Part shown: in pieces, positions 40,871 through 57,464 of the stretch
Layout: each line of letters begins with the position of its first letter
Numbering within the stretch: position 1 is the stretch's first letter
From: Pseudomonadota bacterium
GTDB taxonomy: Bacteria; Pseudomonadota; Gammaproteobacteria; Burkholderiales; JABEVD01
Assembly (NCBI GenBank): GCA_021802545.1
Contig: JAJZRS010000010.1
Location: 6,801 to 70,800 of the forward strand
Direction of reading: 5' to 3'
DNA length: 64,000 nucleotides
Position numbers and translations under genes: made by a program
Notes under the pieces: model-generated
Database searches by the model: none
The model's input: the letters and a program-made list of their open reading frames with translations, nothing else
What the model was told of the DNA's origin: nothing

Positions 40871-41947
40871 TCAGAAGCGGATGTGCGTCGAAGCGTTCAG
40901 GTTGGCGCGCGAGCCTCTCCAGTCGTCCACCAGGTACTTGGTGAAAGGCAGGTCGGTCTTTTCGAAGAAGCGCGGCCAGCCGATGCGATCGATCCAGTCC
41001 GAAAGCCTCTCCCAGGGCCTGGCGTCGTCCTTGTAGACGTGCAGGATATTCTTCACGACCTCAGCCACTTCGGTCCAGCGCGGCGGATTGTTGGGAAGAC
41101 CCGAGGCCACCATCTTCATGAAGGTCGGCTTTGCCCTCGCGTTCGAATTCTTTCCGCCCACCCAGATCGCGATCTTGGAATATTCCGGATCGTTGATCTG
41201 CATCGGGGGGCAGGGAGGATAGCACGCGCCGCAGCACACGCATTTCGTTTCGTCGACTTCCAGCGAAGGCTTGCCGTTGACGAGCGCAGGCCTGATCGCA
41301 GCGACCGGACAACGGGCGACCACGGCGGGACGCTCGCACACGTTGGCGACGAGATCGTGATTGATCTTCGGCGGCTTGGTGTGCTGGACGATGATCGCGA
41401 TGTCGGCCTGGCCACCGCAGTTGATCTCGCAGCAGGAGGTCGAAAGATGAACGCGATTGGGCATTTCCTCGCGCTTGAACTCGACGATCAGTTCGTCCAT
41501 CAAGGACTTCACCACGCCGGACGCGTCCGTTCCGGGAATGTCGCAATGCAGCCATCCCTGGGTATGGGCGATCATGGAAACGGAATTTCCCGTTCCGCCC
41601 ACGGGGAAGCCGTTCGCCTCGAGCTCGGAAATGAGCGGCGCAACCTTGGACTCGTCGGACACCATGAACTCGATGTTCGAGCGGATGGTGAAGCGGACAT
41701 GCCCTTCTGCGAACTTGTCTGCGATTTCGCAAAGCTTCCTGATCGTGTAGACGTCCATCTGGCGCTGCGTGCCTGCGCGAACCGACCAGACCTGATCCCC
41801 GCTGTAGGAAACATGGTGCAACACGCCAGGACGGGGACGATCATGGTACTTCCAGTTGCCGTAGTTCTTGAGCAGCGTGGGATGCATGAACTGCTTGTTG
41901 TCGGGAACGCCACTCTCGACAGGACGGCGCAATTGTGCTTGTGACAT
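40871..41947 (-). CDS. dsrB: Reverse-type dissimilatory sulfite reductase beta subunit
   Basis: 358-aa ORF. Sirohaem/FeS motifs (CCEINCGGQ, CVCCGACYPPCP). Follows dsrA. Confidence 0.95.
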   Translation of the reverse strand: MSQAQLRRPVESGVPDNKQFMHPTLLKNYGNWKYHDRPRPGVLHHVSYSGDQVWSVRAGTQRQMDVYTIRKLCEIADKFAEGHVRFTIRSNIEFMVSDESKVAPLISELEANGFPVGGTGNSVSMIAHTQGWLHCDIPGTDASGVVKSLMDELIVEFKREEMPNRVHLSTSCCEINCGGQADIAIIVQHTKPPKINHDLVANVCERPAVVARCPVAAIRPALVNGKPSLEVDETKCVCCGACYPPCPPMQINDPEYSKIAIWVGGKNSNARAKPTFMKMVASGLPNNPPRWTEVAEVVKNILHVYKDDARPWERLSDWIDRIGWPRFFEKTDLPFTKYLVDDWRGSRANLNASTHIRF

Positions 41948-41959
41948 ACTCTATTCTCC

Positions 41960-43255
41960 TCAGGCAGCCTGCTTCTTGGCTTTGATTTTCGCCACTTCCT
42001 CGTCCCATCCGTCAGTTCTGACATAGGGATTCATCCGCGGGTTCGATACCATGTTCGGATCGACATCGATTCCCATTGCGTCAAGGAAGTTGACCAGACC
42101 GATACGCTCGATCATCTCGCCGGTACGCTCGTGCTCGAGTGCATTCTCGGCAAAGAAATCGATGATGCGCTGACCGAGATCGACGAGCTCGTCCATGGCC
42201 TCGTCAGTATCAAGCTTCATGAAAGGAATGACCACGGTACCCATCAGGTCGCCGATCTTCAGCGTGCGCTTTCCGCCCACCAGAACCGTAGCGCCCTTGT
42301 CTTGGCCCGGGGACAGCGCGCCGGTCATGACATTGATGCAATGCATGCAGCGCACGCAGTCGTGGTTGTCGATCTCGACGGCATGGGTGTCGCTGATGGC
42401 AACGCTGGAAATATGCTCGTCTTTCTTCACATCCTTGATTTCCTTCAGCTGGAAGGCCTTGGTCGGACAGCGGGCAACGACGTCGTTGACGAGCTCGTTC
42501 ATGCCGTGCTTGGCGAACCACTTCTTGGCCAGCGCTTCGTCGGTCCTGATGTTGTCGCGCCAGGTTCCGATGACGGCCATGTCTGCACGCTGAATCGAGT
42601 TCATGCAGTCATTGGGGCAGCCGGAAAACTTGAACTTGAACTTGTAGGGCAGCGAAGGACGATGGATGTCATCGACGAAAGTGTTGAGCATCAGGCGGTG
42701 AGCCTTTGCTTCATCATAGCAGGACTGCTCGCAGCGGGCCGCGCCGACGCAGGACATGGAAGTGCGCACCGCAGGGCCCGCACCGCCGAGATCGAAACCC
42801 ATCTCGTTGAGCTCGTCGAAAGCGCCCTGGACATTGTCCGTCGTCGCACCCTGGAACATGATGTCGCCCGACTGGCCGTGGAAGGCGATCAGGCCGGAAC
42901 CGTGCCGCTCCCAAATGTCGCACATCTTGCGCAGCACATCGGTGTTGTAATGCATGCCTGCAGGAGGCTGGACGCGCAACGTGTGGAATTCCGCAGCGTC
43001 CTTATAGATGGGTTCTCCGTTCTCGTCCTTGAGTTCGGTAAAACGCGGAATGATGCCGCCGCCGTAACCGAAGACACCGACCGTGCCCCCCTTCCAGTAC
43101 CCTTTCTTGGTCTTGTATGACGTTTCGAGCTGACCCAGCAGGTCAACCGCCATGTCATTGTCTTTCGCCAAACGCTTCAGTCCGGTCACGAAGCTGGGCC
43201 AGGGACCTTTCTCGAGTTCATCGAGATTCGGCGTATCATGCAGTTTCTTAGCCAT
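41960..43255 (-). CDS. dsrA: Reverse-type dissimilatory sulfite reductase alpha subunit
   Basis: 431-aa ORF, MAKKLHDTPNLDELEKGPWPSFV. Cys motifs SMSCVGAARCE, FSGCPNDC and CVRCMHC. Co-occurrence with dsrEFH indicates the oxidative type. Confidence 0.96.
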   Translation of the reverse strand: MAKKLHDTPNLDELEKGPWPSFVTGLKRLAKDNDMAVDLLGQLETSYKTKKGYWKGGTVGVFGYGGGIIPRFTELKDENGEPIYKDAAEFHTLRVQPPAGMHYNTDVLRKMCDIWERHGSGLIAFHGQSGDIMFQGATTDNVQGAFDELNEMGFDLGGAGPAVRTSMSCVGAARCEQSCYDEAKAHRLMLNTFVDDIHRPSLPYKFKFKFSGCPNDCMNSIQRADMAVIGTWRDNIRTDEALAKKWFAKHGMNELVNDVVARCPTKAFQLKEIKDVKKDEHISSVAISDTHAVEIDNHDCVRCMHCINVMTGALSPGQDKGATVLVGGKRTLKIGDLMGTVVIPFMKLDTDEAMDELVDLGQRIIDFFAENALEHERTGEMIERIGLVNFLDAMGIDVDPNMVSNPRMNPYVRTDGWDEEVAKIKAKKQAA

Positions 43256-43382
43256 GAATCCTCCTACACATAAAAAGTTATGGAAAGGTCCTTTCGAACC
43301 GTGGCGATCTTGGCCGCCTGTCTATCTAGACGCTCCGCCAAATGAGGTATATTAGACAAGCCTGATGGTCATGTGTAAACTA

Positions 43383-43452
43383 CCCTTACGGGTTATAACC
43401 CAACCCCCCCCGATTGGCTATAGACTCCAGAGCCTTGCATCGCGCTCAATAT
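43383..43452 (+). promoter_or_regulatory. Conserved tripartite upstream module, copy A (in front of the 43501 operon)
   Basis: CCCTTAC-GGGTTAT (43390-96), N19, GGCTATAGAC (43416-25), N21, CAATAT (43447-52). Same boxes, spacing and orientation as copies B and C. GGGTTATAACCC (43390-43401) is a perfect 12-bp palindrome. Confidence 0.6.
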
Positions 43453-43500
43453 GGATTAATATTTATAGCAGATTTTCCCGATCTTCGCAGGCTTTGAACC

Positions 43501-43716
43501 ATGACGCAAATCAATATGCTGGAGAAATTCAATATACCCCTTGGCGGGCAAGAAATCGAGTTGCAGCAGATCGATTATGCCGAGGGCGGCATGAGTCTTT
43601 TGCGCATACGCATCAGGGAAGGCAAGCGCTTCACCATTTTCGACATTGACCCCGTGACAGCGAAACAGTGGTCGGACGCGATGGGAAAATGGGCGGATTC
43701 GGTCAATGGAAAGTGA
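43501..43716 (+). CDS. Hypothetical 71-aa protein
   Basis: ORF MTQINMLEKFNIPLGGQEIELQQIDYAEGGMSLLRIRIREGKRFTIFDIDPVTAKQWSDAMGKWADSVNGK. Overlaps the next gene by 11 nt. No clear SD and no family recognised. Confidence 0.5.
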   Translation: MTQINMLEKFNIPLGGQEIELQQIDYAEGGMSLLRIRIREGKRFTIFDIDPVTAKQWSDAMGKWADSVNGK

Positions 43717-44299
43717 GATGACGGATATCGTATTTGATATCAAGGGCGATCTCGTCCCCCTTGGCTATCCTTTCCTGCTCTGGGACGAAATCACGAAGAC
43801 GCTGCCCTGGCTGAATGAAGAGGCGCATGCCGGGATACTCCCGCTGAAGGGCGCCGCGAGCAATGAAGGCATGCTGCTTCCGAAACGGACGAAGCTCGCA
43901 ATCAGGATTCCGGAAAAGTTCGCGCAGCAGGCTTTGCCGCTTTCCGGGAAAAGACTGGATATAGAAGGTCACTTCCTCGAGGTCGGCCAAGGAAAAAAAC
44001 GGGCGATCGAGGCCTATCCCACCCTGAAAGCCCATATCGTGGAAAGCGAGAAGATTGAAGCTTCCTTCATGGAAGACGTGGAGCGGGAGCTGGGAGAACT
44101 CGGCATCCTATGCAAATTGATCTGCGGCAAGCGGCAAAGCCTGAAATACGGGAATGAAACCATTTCGGGCTACGGCCTCGTGGTTCACGACCTCAAGCCG
44201 GAAGCCTCGATCAGGCTGCAGCAGGTTGGGCTCGGCAATTTCCGTCGTTTTGGTTGCGGCATTTTCGTTCCGCACAAGACGATAGCCGGATTGGATTGA
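43706..44299 (+). CDS. Orphan Cas6/Cmx6-like RAMP protein
   Basis: 197-aa ORF. C-terminal GLGNFRRFGCG (nt 44228-44260) fits the Cas6 glycine-rich loop G-h-G-x5-G-h-G exactly. The size and the N-terminal DIVFDIKG..LP..Y...LW..I...LPWL pattern recall subtype I-MYXAN Cas6/Cmx6. Confidence 0.6.
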   Translation: MESEMTDIVFDIKGDLVPLGYPFLLWDEITKTLPWLNEEAHAGILPLKGAASNEGMLLPKRTKLAIRIPEKFAQQALPLSGKRLDIEGHFLEVGQGKKRAIEAYPTLKAHIVESEKIEASFMEDVERELGELGILCKLICGKRQSLKYGNETISGYGLVVHDLKPEASIRLQQVGLGNFRRFGCGIFVPHKTIAGLD

Positions 44300-44320: not shown

Positions 44321-44650
44321 ATGACGTATCATATCAACGGTGTCGACTTCGAAACGGACGGTGACGGTTATTTGCTGGAGCCCGATTACAGCAACGAGGC
44401 GGTCGAAGTGATTGCTGCAGCAGAAGGCATCACGCTCACCCCAGAGCACTGGAAGATCATCGACTACATGCGCGAGGAATATCGCGAAAACGGCCATACG
44501 CCCAACTTCAGGAACATGGTGAAGGGCGTCCAGGAATTCTGGCCCGAAGCGGACAGCAAGGCGCTCTATGACCTCTTCCCCATGGGACCGGCAAAGCAAG
44601 GCGCGAAAATCGCCGGCCTGCCCCAACCCTACGGCAAGGGCGGTTACTGA
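44321..44650 (+). CDS. DsrC/TusE-family protein lacking both C-terminal cysteines
   Basis: 109-aa ORF that aligns with dsrC at 39455-39790 (TPEHWKIIDYMREEY vs TEQHWEVIDFLRKYY). It ends AKQGAKIAGLPQPYGKGGY where DsrC has GKQACKVAGLPKPTGCI. Strong SD AGGAGG. Confidence 0.85.
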   Translation: MTYHINGVDFETDGDGYLLEPDYSNEAVEVIAAAEGITLTPEHWKIIDYMREEYRENGHTPNFRNMVKGVQEFWPEADSKALYDLFPMGPAKQGAKIAGLPQPYGKGGY

Positions 44651-44660
44651 GGATATCGTG

Positions 44661-45140
44661 ATGGAAAAATTGATTGCCAATGTCGTACTGAACATGAAGG
44701 GCCTCACCTGCCCCGGCCCGCTTCTCGGCGCAAAAAGGATGGTCGACGACCTCGAGAGCGGCCAGATCCTGCTCCTGATCTCCGACTGCCCCGGTACCCA
44801 GGACGACCTGTTTTCCTGGACCAAGCAGACCGACAACCAGGTTCTGCATACCGAAAAGCAGCCTGACGGCGGCATGGGCTATTACATCATGAAGGGCAAG
44901 GGGCACGAGTACAAAGCCAACGTGCTGCTCGACATCAGGGGCGTGCTATGCCCGGGCCCCATCGTCGAAGCCAAGAAACTCCTGAACGGCATGCAGTCCG
45001 GTGAAATCCTGAAGCTGACCAGCAACTGCCCCGGAATCAGGTCAGACATCGAAGGCTGGGCCAAGGCAACCGGGATGGACATCCTGGAATCGGTCGAAGT
45101 CGGTCCCGGCGAGTACGACTTTTTCATCCGGAAAGGCTGA
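44661..45140 (+). CDS. Tandem TusA-TusA (SirA-like) sulfur-carrier fusion protein
   Basis: 159 aa from the ATG at 44661. Two TusA modules each carry the Cys motif: NMKGLTCPGPLLGAKR and DIRGVLCPGPIVEAKK. Confidence 0.85.
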   Translation: MEKLIANVVLNMKGLTCPGPLLGAKRMVDDLESGQILLLISDCPGTQDDLFSWTKQTDNQVLHTEKQPDGGMGYYIMKGKGHEYKANVLLDIRGVLCPGPIVEAKKLLNGMQSGEILKLTSNCPGIRSDIEGWAKATGMDILESVEVGPGEYDFFIRKG

Positions 45141-45733
45141 TGCGGGTCAAGAGCCGCTGGTTCAAGGCCGACCGGGAAAAAACGCCCAAGGAAATCGCGG
45201 GCGCGGCGTCTTTCATTCTTTGGAAAATCGCCCAGAATGCGCTCAAGAACATGCGCGGCGCGGATTACGAGATCGAAGCGGGGCCGCGCTATTTCGATTA
45301 CCTGAGGGAATTCCTGATCTTCCTGATCCTGGTTGCTGACAGGATCGCCTTTGAAAAGATGGAGAACGAATCGAGGGCGTCCTTTACCCTCGAGCTCGCC
45401 TTGAGGGTCGCCGACAATTTGGCGGAAAACCAGAGCGCCCTCCTCGGCCTGCCTTTTCCCGATTCGAAAAACGCCTTCATCGACAAGTTCAACGAGCGGT
45501 CGGATGTCTACGCGCAGTGCGGCTTCGACGAGAACGGCCCGGATTTTGCCTTCATGCGCTATCTCGGGCTTTGCCTGCTCGAATACTGCGATGAACGGGA
45601 CAGAAGCTGGGTCGTCGATCGCGTCATGCAAATCGATGCGATCGAAGCGGTCGCTACTGTCAAGCGCGCCATGAAGGGACTGCTCGACACCGAGCCGGAA
45701 CATCGTCTGGGCTCCGGTATCGGTCCGGACTGA
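45140..45733 (+). CDS. Hypothetical protein
   Basis: 197-aa ORF whose ATG overlaps the preceding TGA by 1 nt. No family recognised. Confidence 0.55.
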   Translation: MRVKSRWFKADREKTPKEIAGAASFILWKIAQNALKNMRGADYEIEAGPRYFDYLREFLIFLILVADRIAFEKMENESRASFTLELALRVADNLAENQSALLGLPFPDSKNAFIDKFNERSDVYAQCGFDENGPDFAFMRYLGLCLLEYCDERDRSWVVDRVMQIDAIEAVATVKRAMKGLLDTEPEHRLGSGIGPD

Positions 45734-45734
45734 A

Positions 45735-46544
45735 ATGGATTATCCATCCTTCAGGAATAGAAAGTTTCTTGACGCGCCGATTTCTGCCGATGCGCTCATC
45801 GTCGAGGTCAATGATCCGGCCTCATTGACCCGTTCCGAATTATCTGCCATGTCCGAACGGATCGGAAAATGCAACATGGCGATCTACAAAAGCAGGATTG
45901 CCCACCCCGACATGAAGGCTGTCGGGCGCCAGTACGGCCTGGAAAACCTGGATGCCAACTGGCTCGCCGGCGAAGACGGCATTTCCGAAATCAAGATCTC
46001 GGAATCCGGGAAGGGATACATTCCGTATACCAACAAGCCGATCAAGTGGCACACCGACGGCTACTACAATCCGCCAGAGCGCAAAATCCGCGCAATGCTT
46101 CTGCATTGTGCCCAGGATGCCACTGAAGGCGGGGAGAACAGGCTGATGGACCACGAGCTCCTGTATTGCCTCCTGATGGATCAAAATCCAGACCTTGTGC
46201 GCGCCTTGTCACAAGTTGACGCGATGCTCATCCCCGAACGTCAGGATGAGAACGGCATTGCAAGAGCGGCCGAATCCGGACCGGTGTTTTCAAGCGACGG
46301 TGGGTTTCTGCACATGCGCTATACGGCGCGGACCCGATCGATTGCCTGGAAGCAGGATGAAGCCACGCGGGCCGCAGTCTCCGCAATAGAGACCATCCTT
46401 TCATCCCCTTCTCCTTACATGTACACAATAAAGCTGGAGCCCGGCATGGGCATCGTCTGCAACAACGTGCTGCATGACCGCTCGGCTTTCACAGGCAACG
46501 CAAGGTTGCTTTACCGGGCACGCTATTACGACCGCATCAAATAA
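45735..46544 (+). CDS. TauD/TfdA-family Fe(II)/2-oxoglutarate dioxygenase-like protein
   Basis: 269-aa ORF. The HxD in KWHTDGYY, a distal His in NNVLHDRSAF and Arg in LLYRARY fit the facial-triad layout of the family. Confidence 0.7.
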   Translation: MDYPSFRNRKFLDAPISADALIVEVNDPASLTRSELSAMSERIGKCNMAIYKSRIAHPDMKAVGRQYGLENLDANWLAGEDGISEIKISESGKGYIPYTNKPIKWHTDGYYNPPERKIRAMLLHCAQDATEGGENRLMDHELLYCLLMDQNPDLVRALSQVDAMLIPERQDENGIARAAESGPVFSSDGGFLHMRYTARTRSIAWKQDEATRAAVSAIETILSSPSPYMYTIKLEPGMGIVCNNVLHDRSAFTGNARLLYRARYYDRIK

Positions 46545-46546
46545 AA

Positions 46547-46572
46547 GCCCCTCGCCTTTTCAGGCGAGGGGC
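46547..46572. terminator. Hairpin between convergent genes (A-run upstream, so a better terminator for the minus-strand fadL-like gene)
   Basis: GCCCCTCGCC-TTTTCA-GGCGAGGGGC, a 10-bp stem. It is preceded by AATAAAA on the plus strand. Confidence 0.6.
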
Positions 46573-46598: not shown

Positions 46599-47876
46599 TT
46601 ACCAGCCGTAGGAAATGCCGAGCGAATCCTCGGAAAGGGTATTGTTCGCCAGTCCGCCGCCCATGCCTGCAGGCGGGAACCCGGGGGAAATTGAAACATT
46701 GTTTATGCCATTCACGGTGCTGCTGAATGCGTGCATGTAGAACACCGTCACCTCGGATTTGTTCGCCAGTTTCCAGGTCGCGCCGAGGGTCACGTTGTCC
46801 TTCACGACGCCGGGAGCCAAAATGTTGAACAGCGTCTCGGTGGAAGGATAGGGCACGTTGTTGTGTGTCCATCCTGCTCTCACGGTCAGGTTTGAATCGT
46901 ACTGATGGGAGACGCCCAGCTTGTAGACAGTCAGGTTGCCCCAGCCAAAACCTGCGCCCGCGCTTGCACCCAAGGCGCCGGTTGCGCCCAGTCCCAAATT
47001 CGAAATTGGATCAGCTATTGCAGCCACATCACCGTACATGATGCGCTGGATGTCGAATGCGACGGTCGTAGCGGGAGTAGCCTTCACCGAGATGCCCACG
47101 CCGTAGGTCGCAGGAATGTCGAACGAGCCCTGCTGGGCAAAAAGACCGCTGTACTTGCTGAGCTTGCCCATCTTGGTCTTGGTCTGGTAGGTCGCGCCCA
47201 GCGTGACGGTGGGAGAAACCTGACCCATCCAGCCGATGTGCAGTCCGTAGCCGGTGTCGGAATCGGTGCCGGGATTGTTGAATCCATTGGCCGCGGCGGA
47301 AGAAAATCCTGCAAAGGGCTGTATGCCCTTGGCCGAGAAGCGCTGATAGGCGAGGTTCAGCGCAACGCCGATGGAATTGCTTGCATTGAGCTTCTTCGAC
47401 CAGGTCGGCGCAATGAAGAGCTGCTCGAGGTTCACCCCGGCATTGCCAGTCGCACCAAAGCGGGCGTAGGGGTTAGTTGCGTAGTCGGTGTTCATCCCGC
47501 CGTTGCCGTATATGGAGACACCGAGAGAGGAATCCGGCCCCATCATCTTGTTGTAGCCGAAATTGGGGATGAAGAAATTCTGCTTGTCGTTGCCGTCGTA
47601 GGTCGCATTCGCCCCGAACGCATTGCCGATGATCGAAGAACTCCGGCTCGGCCTGAACCATTCGAGGCCGAAATCGATCCTGTCGCCGACCATCACCATG
47701 CCTGCCGGGTTGGTCGCTGCAGCCAGAGCGTCCTGCGGGAGTGCGATCCCCACTCCGCCCATGCCTTCGGACTTCGCGCCATAGCCGTGTGAAAAATAGC
47801 CATTCGTGGCGTAGGCTGCAGGCGCGACAAGGCCGCCAGCAATCAACATCGAAACAAGCAATTTCCTCTTTATCAT
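46599..47876 (-). CDS. FadL/TodX-family outer-membrane transporter for hydrophobic compounds
   Basis: 425-aa ORF. Signal peptide ..VAPAAYA, N-terminal hatch motif NGYFSHGYGAKSEGMGGVG, C-terminal ..GISYGW. Confidence 0.83.
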   Translation of the reverse strand: MIKRKLLVSMLIAGGLVAPAAYATNGYFSHGYGAKSEGMGGVGIALPQDALAAATNPAGMVMVGDRIDFGLEWFRPSRSSSIIGNAFGANATYDGNDKQNFFIPNFGYNKMMGPDSSLGVSIYGNGGMNTDYATNPYARFGATGNAGVNLEQLFIAPTWSKKLNASNSIGVALNLAYQRFSAKGIQPFAGFSSAAANGFNNPGTDSDTGYGLHIGWMGQVSPTVTLGATYQTKTKMGKLSKYSGLFAQQGSFDIPATYGVGISVKATPATTVAFDIQRIMYGDVAAIADPISNLGLGATGALGASAGAGFGWGNLTVYKLGVSHQYDSNLTVRAGWTHNNVPYPSTETLFNILAPGVVKDNVTLGATWKLANKSEVTVFYMHAFSSTVNGINNVSISPGFPPAGMGGGLANNTLSEDSLGISYGW

Positions 47877-47914
47877 GGTGTTGCCCCTCTCTCCTATTAA
47901 TTAGTGGTACAGCT

Positions 47915-48382
47915 TCAAACAAACAGACAGATATCGGTTTCCCCGGCGAATTCCATGAAGGTCGCGGCGCCGCCGAATTCGATCCCTTCGATGAAATCGC
48001 TCTTGTCGAATTCGAAAAGGTCTACGGTCATCTGGCAGGCAACGAACTTGACGTCCGCCTCCAGGCACATGCTCCTCAGCTCCTCGAGGGATGCAACGCC
48101 CTTCTTCTTCAGCTTGTCCTTCATCATCATCGTCGCCATGGATTCCATGCCAGGCAGCATCTGCACGAAAACAGGCATGGGAACAGGCATGGGCATCGCC
48201 GGGTTGGCCAGCGGACTGATCTTGACGTCGGACAGATCCTTTTTCAGGAGCTGAAGTCCGTAGAAGGTGAAGAAAATCTGAACATCGTACCCCAGTGCAG
48301 CTGCAGTGGATCCCAGGATGAACGGGGGATAGGCCATGTCGAGCGTGCCCTTTGTGGCGATGATCGCCATTTTTTTTGTCAT
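47915..48382 (-). CDS. DsrE-family sulfurtransferase-like protein (DsrE3-like)
   Basis: 155-aa ORF, MAIIATKGTLDMAYPPFILGSTAAALG..VKFVACQMTVDLF, with a conserved Cys as in DsrE2/DsrE3-type proteins. Sits 10 nt downstream of tusA. Confidence 0.78.
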   Translation of the reverse strand: MTKKMAIIATKGTLDMAYPPFILGSTAAALGYDVQIFFTFYGLQLLKKDLSDVKISPLANPAMPMPVPMPVFVQMLPGMESMATMMMKDKLKKKGVASLEELRSMCLEADVKFVACQMTVDLFEFDKSDFIEGIEFGGAATFMEFAGETDICLFV

Positions 48383-55668: not shown

Positions 55669-56793
55669 ATGAGCGCAGCCGTGAAGGAATCCGTTCCAGA
55701 AAACAAGCCCTCGAACAGAGACGAATGCTCGACGCTGGCAGAAGGATTTCTGGGGACGATAGCAAAAATGACCGGCGCCATAGCTGGCGCGGTGCGCGTC
55801 CTTTCCGACGATGGAAAGGAGATGCGTCTCATAGGCTCCTTTGGCCTGGAGGAAGAGGTCGTCGAATGCGAAAGCACCACCGACAGTAGCTGCGGCGCCT
55901 GCGGCGCAGCCTTGCGCGAGCTGGAGGCCAGGTTTGCAGGCGTGAAGACCTGCATGCTCCGCAACGGCAGAAACTTTTTCGGCAAAGGATGCAAAAGCAT
56001 GGTTGCCGTCCCGCTCGTGGCCAGAGGAGAAACAATAGGCATCTTCAACCTCTTTTTTTCCTCCCCGAAGACGATTCCCGAAGAAGCCGAAAAGAATCTC
56101 TATTTCCTGGGCGAACTGCTCGCCATCGCGCTGGACAATTCGAGGCGCGCCAGGGAAAGCCGGCGAGCCGGCATCGTGACCGAGCGCCGCTGCATGGCCA
56201 ACGAGATCCACGATTCCCTGGCCCAGAATCTTGTATTCGCGAGAATGCGCATGAGCCTGCTGAACGAGGCGATCAGAACAAACAATGACGAACTCGCCGG
56301 AAAATACGTGAACGATGTCACCGAGGCGCTTTCTTCCGGTCAGCGTGCAGTTCGCGAGCTGATCACCCATTTCCGCAGCCCCATGGATCCGCTCGGACTC
56401 GAGCACGCGTTGCGCGAACTCGTCGAGGAATTCAAGAAGCGCAGCGGAATACCCCTGGAATTCAGCAACCGCGTCGGAGAATTCGATCTCCCCGTCGAGT
56501 ACGAGCTACAGGCATTCAACATCGTGCGCGAAGTGCTTGCCAACATCGCCGCGCATTCCAGCGCAACCCGCGCACACCTTGCCGTTTGTCGCAACTCGGG
56601 ACAATTCGTGTTCGTCATCGAAGACAACGGCTCTGGCATTCCCGACACACTGCCCTGCGAAGGGCATTACGGCCTCACGATCATGCGCGAACGCGCCATG
56701 AGAATGGGCGGAACGCTCGAGGTTGAAAGCGCTTGCGGCCAGGGCACCAAAGTGAAGCTGAGCATCCCCTGCAGTCCGGAGACATTATCATGA
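55669..56793 (+). CDS. Soluble GAF-domain sensor histidine kinase (HisKA_3 / NarX-type)
   Basis: 374-aa ORF with no TM segment. N-terminal GAF-like domain with a Cys-rich insert, H-box MANEIHDSLAQNL, and an ATPase domain (IEDNGSGIP, GHYGLTIMRERA). Confidence 0.85.
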   Translation: MSAAVKESVPENKPSNRDECSTLAEGFLGTIAKMTGAIAGAVRVLSDDGKEMRLIGSFGLEEEVVECESTTDSSCGACGAALRELEARFAGVKTCMLRNGRNFFGKGCKSMVAVPLVARGETIGIFNLFFSSPKTIPEEAEKNLYFLGELLAIALDNSRRARESRRAGIVTERRCMANEIHDSLAQNLVFARMRMSLLNEAIRTNNDELAGKYVNDVTEALSSGQRAVRELITHFRSPMDPLGLEHALRELVEEFKKRSGIPLEFSNRVGEFDLPVEYELQAFNIVREVLANIAAHSSATRAHLAVCRNSGQFVFVIEDNGSGIPDTLPCEGHYGLTIMRERAMRMGGTLEVESACGQGTKVKLSIPCSPETLS

Positions 56794-57464
56794 CCGAAAC
56801 CATCCGACTTGTTCTCGTCGACGACCATTGCCTCTGTCGGCGTGGACTCACCGAACTTTTCGATCATTGCTATGGCATTTCCGTGGTCGGCGGGACAGGA
56901 AATGCATCGGAAGTCATTCCCATCCTTCAGGATACGCACCCCGACCTTCTGATCATGGACTTGCGCATGGAGCCCGTTGACGGCCTGGCGATTCTCGACC
57001 AGATCAGGAAAGCGGCCATAGACACGCCCGTCGTCATCCTGACGATGAGCGACTCGGAATCCGATCTTGCCGCGGCAATGCGACTCGGAGCGAAGGGCTA
57101 TCTTCTGAAGGACATGGATCCCGAGGACGTCGTCAATGCGGTGAGGCGCATCGCAGCAGGAGAACTGGTCGTCGCGCCCGCCATGACCGTGAAGCTGATG
57201 AATTTTCTGCAGCACGGCCAGCAGGAGCAGGTGCGCAAGAATTCACTGGAGCTTCTGACTGAACGGGAGCGTGAAATCCTTCAGCATCTGGCGCGCGGAG
57301 AAAGCAACAAGGTCATCGCCAGGACGCTCGACATCAGCTACGACACCGTCAAGCAGCATGTCAGGCACATTCTCTTCAAGCTCAAGCTCGCATCACGCGT
57401 CGAAGCTGCCGTGTTCGCCGTCGAGCAGCGCGCGAGCGAAAACAGGGTCTCCACCGGCCACTAG
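56790..57464 (+). CDS. NarL/LuxR-family response regulator
   Basis: MTETIRLVLVDDHCLCRRGL from the ATG at 56790 (ATGA overlap with the kinase stop). Receiver Asp in LLIMDLRMEP and a C-terminal LuxR HTH (LTEREREILQHLARGESNKVIARTLDISYDTVKQHV). Confidence 0.9.
   Translation: MTETIRLVLVDDHCLCRRGLTELFDHCYGISVVGGTGNASEVIPILQDTHPDLLIMDLRMEPVDGLAILDQIRKAAIDTPVVILTMSDSESDLAAAMRLGAKGYLLKDMDPEDVVNAVRRIAAGELVVAPAMTVKLMNFLQHGQQEQVRKNSLELLTEREREILQHLARGESNKVIARTLDISYDTVKQHVRHILFKLKLASRVEAAVFAVEQRASENRVSTGH

Follow-up and report, generated by a model that had tools for sequence, protein, structure and literature searches.

A Cas6/Cmx6-family gene in a conserved cassette divergent from the oxidative dsr operon

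A Cas6-fold protein encoded outside CRISPR-Cas

Cas6 is normally the RNA-cutting enzyme of clustered regularly interspaced short palindromic repeat (CRISPR) systems. In the window analyzed here, a 64-kb stretch (64,000 nucleotides, nt) of contig JAJZRS010000010.1 from a Burkholderiales bacterium, a gene on the + strand at 43706-44299 encodes a 197-amino-acid (aa) protein of the Cas6/Cmx6 family, hereafter designated Cas6-like. No CRISPR-Cas locus includes this gene, which instead forms part of a conserved cassette that is physically coupled, in two deep clades and hundreds of genomes, to the operon for the oxidative (reverse) dissimilatory sulfite reductase (dsr). It seems that sulfur metabolism has recruited a whole branch of Cas6/Cmx6 proteins. 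Cas proteins outside CRISPR are rare and instructive on the origin and exaptation of CRISPR systems, and the dsr-linked case is deep, species-rich and strongly conserved, and concerns a core energy pathway rather than defence or mobile elements.

Profile searches revealed that Cas6-like matches Pfam PF09559 ("Cas6 Crispr") over its full length (186.2 bits, E = 8e-55; cutoff 26.7), NCBIfam TIGR02807 (cas6_cmx6; 145.5 bits against a curated cutoff of 98.85) and the Cas6 models of PADLOC (E = 3e-55). Its only sequence relative in the PDB is 8fcj_B, the Cas6 of a cyanobacterial type I-B CRISPR-associated transposon (CAST) Cascade (E = 5e-15). The AlphaFold2 model, built with 28 homologues, has a predicted local distance difference test score (pLDDT) of 91.8 and a predicted template modelling score (pTM) of 0.85, and Foldseek matched it best to 8fcu_B and 8fcj_B (template modelling score, TM, 0.87; root-mean-square deviation ~2 Å; E = 5e-18 for 8fcu_B), followed by more than 40 Cas6, Cse3 and Cas6e chains. 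The product is a bona fide Cas6-fold protein of the Cmx6 family with a double ferredoxin-like fold of the RNA recognition motif (RRM) type, so the family assignment of the first-pass annotation, read from the letters, is borne out by the profiles as well as by the fold comparison that it had suggested. The same annotation had placed the Cas6 signature loop at the end of the product: the glycine-rich loop GLGNFRRFGCG (residues 175-185; 44228-44260, +) does fit the pattern G-h-G-x5-G-h-G exactly, but it is not the end of the protein, as 12 residues (IFVPHKTIAGLD) follow. Within the loop, G175, G177, R180, G183, C184 and G185 are invariant among the 28 homologues and kept in at least 130 of the 148 family representatives described below. 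Altogether 28 positions of Cas6-like are invariant across these homologues, whose identity to it is 44-81%, indicating strong constraint by purifying selection. The start codon is ambiguous, since the ATG at 43706 overlaps the upstream DUF6967 gene by 11 nt, and an alternative ATG at 43718 (Met5), 2 nt past the DUF6967 stop, aligns with a Met conserved in many homologues; on public contigs, the 197-aa form is the one called.

Tandem Repeats Finder, a direct-repeat search and Rfam detected no CRISPR array in the window, and a PADLOC scan of all 147 open reading frames (ORFs) of at least 131 aa in six frames found no other cas gene, Cas6-like alone matching Cas models, in agreement with what the first-pass annotation had reported for the 64 kb. 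The left half of the window holds housekeeping genes, among them gyrA, aroA, cmk, rpsA, pyrF and one resembling the RNase R gene, and the region is therefore regarded as ordinary chromosome. A PADLOC match to "CARF3" (E = 5e-9) was dismissed because it corresponds to the LuxR-type helix-turn-helix of a NarL-type response regulator (56733-57461), which forms a pair with a GAF histidine kinase (55669-57461 for both); such a spurious match could pass for a CRISPR-accessory gene. Among 94 related loci (1.5 Mb), no convincing CRISPR array was found. The sole array-like signal among them, three copies of CATACTCTCCCC at CRISPR-like spacing in locus L007 (7259-7417), is weak and too short to interpret. 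As a positive control, the locus of a cyanobacterial Cmx6 (P0148, locus L093) showed the order TniQ, Cas6, DevT (Cas8b), Cas7 and Cas5; its array has two repeats of 36 nt, 72 nt apart.

A conserved cassette coupled to the dsr operon

Cas6-like is the second gene of a tight six-gene operon on the + strand, which runs from the gene for a DUF6967 protein to that for a TauD-like protein. Across a 245-nt control region, on the opposite strand, lie dsrA (41960-43255, -) and dsrB (40871-41947, -), the first genes of an oxidative-type dsr operon (40871-43255 for the pair), together with dsrEFH. In orthologous loci, the NIR_SIR domains are followed by DsrE, DsrE, DsrH, DsrC and DsrMKLJOP (tblastn identity 82-95%). 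The sulfur-carrier neighbours noticed in the first-pass annotation were confirmed as a DsrC-like gene (44321-44650) and a tandem TusA gene (44661-45140), with the divergent dsrA and dsrB in addition.

The 120 closest database relatives of Cas6-like (44-100% identity) come from Burkholderiales, Gallionella and Sideroxyarcus, and the same cassette divergent from dsrAB was observed in Sideroxyarcus emersonii, in a 244-kb JGI (Joint Genome Institute) metagenome contig and in a Burkholderiales metagenome-assembled genome (MAG). When GTDB species were scanned with one genome each, relatives of Cas6-like turned up in at least 586 genomes; the best 80 loci, which come mostly from MAGs of Gallionellaceae, Nitrosomonadales and Burkholderiales and also include Ferriphaselus sp. 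R-1, were examined. Wherever the contig reaches, all 80 carry dsrB-dsrA on one strand and the cassette on the other, in the order DUF6967, Cas6-like, DsrC-like, (TusA-TusA), helical protein and TauD-like. In 90 sequences, many of whose contigs end early, DUF6967 was counted in 87, DsrC-like in 83, TusA-TusA in 71, the helical protein in 80 and TauD-like in 67; the homologues of the helical protein include some from distant loci.

The association extends well beyond the nearest relatives. A HMMER search of 1.84 billion representative proteins returned 1,626 clusters at E ≤ 1e-3 and 269 at E ≤ 1e-30, and four other subclusters of the top 150 were sampled for gene context. P0245 is dsr-divergent and accompanied by DUF6967, TusA, the helical protein and TauD-like; P0287 is likewise dsr-divergent, with DUF6967, DsrC-like, the helical protein and TauD-like; and P0247, P0263 and P0267 each lie directly 3' of DUF6967. 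All five are relatives that retain the family His discussed below. The distant P0340 (230 aa) stands in a row of TauD-like, a small protein, Cas6-like and the helical protein, which is also divergent from dsrAB. A metagenome scan seeded with a clade of 228-aa proteins (clade 2) yielded at least 573 relatives, and among the best 80 loci, dsrA or dsrB was present in 22 of the 23 that have an upstream flank of at least 4.4 kb. In clade 2, TauD-like comes first, followed by proteins of 65 aa and 235 aa, Cas6-like, a DsrC-like protein with the C-terminus RRKGGY, and rhodanese. The cassette beside dsrAB was thus observed in the window, in 84 genome and contig loci, in the distant relatives and in 80 metagenome loci. 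Taken together, approximately 170 genome and metagenome loci of two divergent clades were inspected, and each informative one shows the dsr-linked arrangement, in all cases divergent from dsrAB; because of this conservation Cas6-like is no accidental orphan.

Two side observations concern these loci. In clade 2, the 235-aa ORF at the position of the helical protein (locus L100, 7255-7962) has no Pfam match and was not detected as its homologue; a helical structure is a guess from its sequence. In one metagenome locus (L002, 1-4602), the dsr operon is broken after dsrM by a type I restriction-modification system and a PIN/MazE toxin-antitoxin pair, and the Cas6-like cassette is intact but lacks TusA-TusA.

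Divergence from the CRISPR-type Cmx6 proteins

Cas6-like resembles the Cmx6 proteins of type I-B (I-MYXAN, Dev-type) systems represented by 8fcj and 8fcu in its Pfam and NCBIfam family, its similar length and its two-RRM fold; with the type I-B CAST Cas6 it shares 27% identity at TM 0.87, a glycine-rich loop with GCG, Asp7 and Arg67. Unlike CRISPR Cmx6, it has no cas8b (devT), cas7 (devR), cas5 (devS), TniQ or array beside it and sits in the dsr-linked cassette. A family alignment of 196 sequences, including 18 cyanobacterial CRISPR Cmx6 proteins and 148 family representatives, revealed a further difference in the motif after helix 1, which is G-[IVL]-H-P-[LIV] family-wide and GILPL in the window protein, where Leu45 (codon 43838-43840, +) occupies the position of the conserved His. 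This His is present in 18 of 18 cyanobacterial CRISPR Cmx6 proteins and in 109 of the 148 family representatives. The clade of the window protein has Leu, Ile or Val at position 45 and His in almost none of its members, and other dsr-linked subclades show scattered independent losses. His45 is likely the catalytic His, because it is conserved and follows helix 1 in the N-terminal RRM, the region where the His of other Cas6 proteins is found; the H37A mutant of TTHA0078 is among the Foldseek matches of the Cas6-like model. In contrast to this variable position, the glycine-rich loop, Asp7, R61, K/R63, R67, R99, R180 and K191 are at least 90% conserved in the 148 representatives. Residues peculiar to the dsr-linked type include W26, T106, E118, C140 and S168, which are invariant, and H161 and D162, which are nearly so.

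The two types also separate by score on TIGR02807 (dsr type 97-145 bits, CRISPR type 186-205 bits; cutoff 98.85), Cas6-like itself falling 40-60 bits below CRISPR Cmx6. Because this equivalog cutoff admits dsr-linked proteins, public records carry the misleading name "type I-MYXAN CRISPR-associated protein Cas6/Cmx6" for them, and naming by TIGR02807 can yield false CRISPR-Cas calls in hundreds of genomes and MAGs of sulfur oxidizers.

Partner genes of the cassette

The DUF6967 gene (43501-43716, +; PF22295, E = 2e-31) encodes a small, highly conserved protein of 71 aa with the core RIRIREGKRFTIFDIDP, for which no significant match was found among PDB sequences. It lies directly upstream of Cas6-like in 87 of 90 loci and overlaps it by 1-14 nt in 48 of the 87. 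As the two genes overlap or abut in most loci, they are probably translationally coupled, and their products may form a complex.

The third gene (44321-44650, +; PF04358, E = 1e-32) encodes a DsrC/TusE/RspA-family protein that lacks both C-terminal cysteines and ends in GLPQPYGKGGY. Among its orthologues, 69 of 79 distinct sequences contain no Cys, and the tail is strictly G-L-P-Q-P-x-G-K-G-G-Y, as opposed to G-L-P-K-P-T-G-C-V in true DsrC; the RRKGGY-ending counterpart of clade 2 is exemplified by L100:8797-9135. The protein retains the full-length C-terminal arm and is very acidic, with an isoelectric point (pI) of ~4.7. In the literature (PMC8477390), the Cys-less class of the DsrC/TusE family is named RspA. 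The next gene (44661-45140, +; PF01206 twice, E = 1.5e-35) encodes a tandem TusA-TusA sulfur carrier with both CPxP cysteines. The DsrC/TusE/RspA and TusA families are those of the neighbours, and Cas6-like itself is unrelated to them.

The fifth gene (45140-45733, +) encodes a 197-aa protein of no known family, without Pfam or NCBIfam match, which AlphaFold2 models as six helices and nothing else (pLDDT 89.8). No fold match was found in the PDB (best E = 0.54), and its profile likewise had no PDB sequence match; its invariant residues include R2, W7, E57, D67, R68, R79, N118 and W157. A degenerate mini-Cascade, with this neighbour as a Cas11-, Cas5- or Cas7-like subunit, was rejected on the basis of the helical model and the lack of a PDB fold or sequence match. 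The last gene (45735-46544, +; PF02668, E = 7e-16) encodes a TauD-family Fe(II)/2-oxoglutarate dioxygenase-like protein that contains the H-x-D motif (WHTD) and is found in both clades. Its nearest NCBIfam models are trimethyllysine and gamma-butyrobetaine dioxygenases, far under their cutoffs. From this likeness to lysine-derivative hydroxylases, modification of the DsrC-like tail by the TauD-like protein may be speculated.

Proposed role in dsr expression or assembly

Cas6-like, a CRISPR-independent family member and a fixed part of an accessory operon divergent from the oxidative dsr operon, is proposed to be an exapted Cas6 that would bind RNA or another anionic ligand, probably without cutting it, and would act as a complex with the DUF6967 protein, to which it is probably translationally coupled. 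Such a complex could exert post-transcriptional or assembly-linked control of dsr or cassette expression, and the control would answer to the state of the sulfur carriers (TusA and DsrC-like) encoded alongside. That an exapted Cas6 binds RNA post-transcriptionally in a regulatory or accessory role in dsr expression or assembly is held tentatively, at a little short of an even chance. In the lineage of the window protein, cleavage appears to have been lost and the ligand-binding site kept, because the fold, the glycine-rich loop and the basic cluster (R61, K63, R67, R99, R180 and K191) persist and the His does not. The first-pass annotation had speculated on a factor that binds or processes hairpin RNA; processing finds no support, given that the family His is Leu45 and most of the basic surface is lost, and cleavage by the window protein is doubtful. 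RNA binding, by comparison, is plausible because the loop and the six conserved basic residues are kept.

Precedents exist on both the protein and the pathway side. A Cas6-related protein of Pyrococcus furiosus (3ufc, a Foldseek match) has a Cas6 fold without the catalytic His; in Cas6-like, the fold and the replacement of the family His are shown, and that His is presumably the catalytic one. Non-catalytic Cas6 paralogues still bind repeat RNA without cutting it; they occur in genomes with CRISPR arrays and recognize the repeats, whereas Cas6-like is encoded in a metabolic operon and has no evident repeat-like target. On the pathway side, post-transcriptional control of dsr by DsrR and DsrS in Allochromatium vinosum, by an unknown mechanism, was reportedly described by Grimm and co-workers in 2010 and 2011. 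Cas6-like resembles DsrR and DsrS in being a dsr-linked accessory gene with a proposed effect on expression rather than catalysis, but is related to neither in sequence or fold. DsrR is IscA-like, and the genes for both close the dsr operon instead of lying in a divergent cassette.

A more ambitious and somewhat unlikely version of the proposal is that a large Cas6/Cmx6 branch has no part in CRISPR and forms the RNA-recognizing core of a housekeeping riboregulatory module tuning the expression or assembly of the reverse dissimilatory sulfite reductase. Its partners would be DUF6967, the KGGY-tailed DsrC-like protein, the new helical protein and the Fe/2-oxoglutarate dioxygenase, and it would sense the status of the sulfur carriers and possibly of oxygen. 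If true, this would be the first Cas6 domesticated to control energy metabolism and would open a mechanistic route into the post-transcriptional regulation of dsr genes that has long been noted. In any case, the five- or six-gene cassette beside dsrAB, which is apparently undescribed and includes two proteins of which neither function nor fold relatives are known, as well as a DsrC-like protein whose GKGGY tail is strict, supplies candidates for dsr regulation or maturation. No description of the GKGGY-tailed DsrC-like subgroup and its fixed pairing with the Cas6 family was found in the searched literature, nor was a published description of dsr-linked Cas6 or DUF6967, although the coverage was incomplete and an earlier mention is possible; targeted reading of the Cas classification papers and of the Gallionellaceae pangenome paper turned up no mention of dsr-linked Cas6.

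Several observations weigh against RNA binding as the function of Cas6-like. The dsr-linked proteins have a median pI of 6.3 and a net charge of approximately -2, compared with a median pI of 9.2 in CRISPR Cmx6. Of 14 positions that are Lys or Arg in at least 80% of the CRISPR type, two (63 and 67) are basic family-wide and 12 are not conserved as such; five stay basic in the clade of the window protein. Cas6-like would thus keep a compact anion-binding site and not the extended RNA-binding surface of its CRISPR relatives. Moreover, the catalytic role of position 45, from which a binding-only protein is argued, is itself deduced from conservation and the location after helix 1. A transcriptome paper on Sideroxydans lithotrophicus ES-1, in which dsrA is Slit_1686 and the cassette would correspond to about Slit_1687-1692, reports dsr induction on thiosulfate, and no rows for Slit_1687-1692 were found in the supplement searched.

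The control region between dsrA and DUF6967 (43256-43500) points in the same direction. It contains the palindrome ACCCTTACGGGT (43382-43393), overlapped by GGGTTATAACCC (43390-43401). Of 79 orthologous intergenic regions, 71 contain the corresponding pattern ACCC-N4-GGGT, compared with 3.6 after shuffling, and it precedes the DUF6967 ATG by 91-135 nt; in clade 2 the pattern widens to ATCCC-N4-GGGAT, which 21 of 32 regions contain where 7.9 are expected. In Gallionellaceae loci, the palindrome is situated between apparent divergent -10 boxes. Because of this position and the widening in clade 2, the simplest reading of this best-conserved nearby element is a DNA operator rather than a transcribed hairpin. 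It is probably the operator of a dsr regulator, for which the helix-turn-helix-bearing DsrC-like protein would be one candidate. In the window, a weak promoter-like match puts the transcription start at about the palindrome, which may therefore be transcribed there, and its 4-bp stem and 4-nt loop bear a superficial likeness to the GCC-GTTA-GGC hairpin of the cyanobacterial repeat; as a hairpin target of Cas6, it is nonetheless less likely than as an operator. The dsrA leaders of Gallionellaceae are ~130-150 nt long and contain at least one hairpin with covariation (UA to CG and GC to AU; RNAalifold), which makes them a possible RNA substrate; further apparent hairpins in them end beside the Shine-Dalgarno sequence (L017:9479-9649, minus strand, is an example). 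The dsrA leader of the window is short (~90 nt) and lacks these hairpins, so they are not claimed as a target of Cas6-like, and no RNA target was identified in the dsr/cassette control region and the dsrA leaders inspected.

Alternative explanations

The same loss of positive charge, with most CRISPR-type basic positions gone, would also fit a Cas6 fold repurposed as a protein- or small-anion-binding subunit in a complex with the DsrC-like, TusA-TusA, helical and TauD-like proteins. This main rival is a serious, if somewhat unlikely, alternative and gains from the repeated loss of the His in several dsr-linked subclades and from the nature of the cassette partners, all of which are protein or sulfur-carrier types with no recognizable RNA protein among them. 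The strict KGGY tail of the acidic DsrC-like protein suggests a specific docking partner, and as the nearest models of TauD-like are lysine-derivative hydroxylases, one variant would be a module that senses sulfur or oxygen or modifies proteins, with the GKGGY tail, DsrAB or DsrC as its target. The near invariance of the glycine-rich loop and of six basic residues is harder to reconcile with such a subunit, and the presence of His45 in ~74% of dsr-linked representatives suggests an ancestral activity still kept in many lineages; furthermore, we know of no non-nucleic-acid ligand for any Cas6-fold protein.

An active endoribonuclease that relies on other residues, such as His161 or His190 with Lys or Arg, and cuts dsr or cassette mRNA at a hairpin is improbable. 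Hairpin processing of the polycistronic mRNA would set subunit stoichiometry, and Cas6 active sites are plastic, several His-less Cas6 enzymes being able to cleave. Among 30 clade members, 29 have His161, while at position 190 there are 15 with His, 12 with Tyr and 3 with Phe, and close relatives in the same context retain His45. However, His161 and His190 are equally common in His45-bearing relatives, so that no compensating change is apparent, and the gaps of ~10-40 nt inside the dsr operon and the cassette leave little space for a substrate hairpin.

It is very improbable that a type I-B/I-MYXAN-like CRISPR-Cas system elsewhere in the genome uses Cas6-like in trans. The score exceeds the TIGR02807 equivalog cutoff and the inspection covered 64 kb of the genome; against this, the position beside dsrAB and DUF6967 is conserved in ~170 loci of many species with no cas gene or array within 8-10 kb, genuine Cmx6 is located within its own cas operon, and both His45 and the basic surface are lost. 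A decaying, functionless remnant of a lost CRISPR-Cas locus, for which nothing speaks except the absence of other cas genes, is barely conceivable in view of the intact ORF, of 28 residues invariant in 28 homologues that diverge to 44% identity, of the fixed synteny of hundreds of orthologues and of a confident predicted fold. Synteny and conservation effectively rule out both of these explanations.

Flanking sequences downstream of the cassette

The TauD-like gene and an outer-membrane-protein gene converge on an 11-bp stem-loop (46547-46572), the likely terminator of the cassette. Beyond it, on the - strand and convergent with the cassette (46599-48382), lie the genes for a Toluene_X-type outer-membrane channel and a DsrE2-like (DrsE_2) protein; in relatives, a single-domain TusA comes next after the DsrE2-like gene. 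As the outer-membrane channel and DsrE2-like genes are syntenic in many loci, the sulfur-relay neighbourhood reaches past the cassette.

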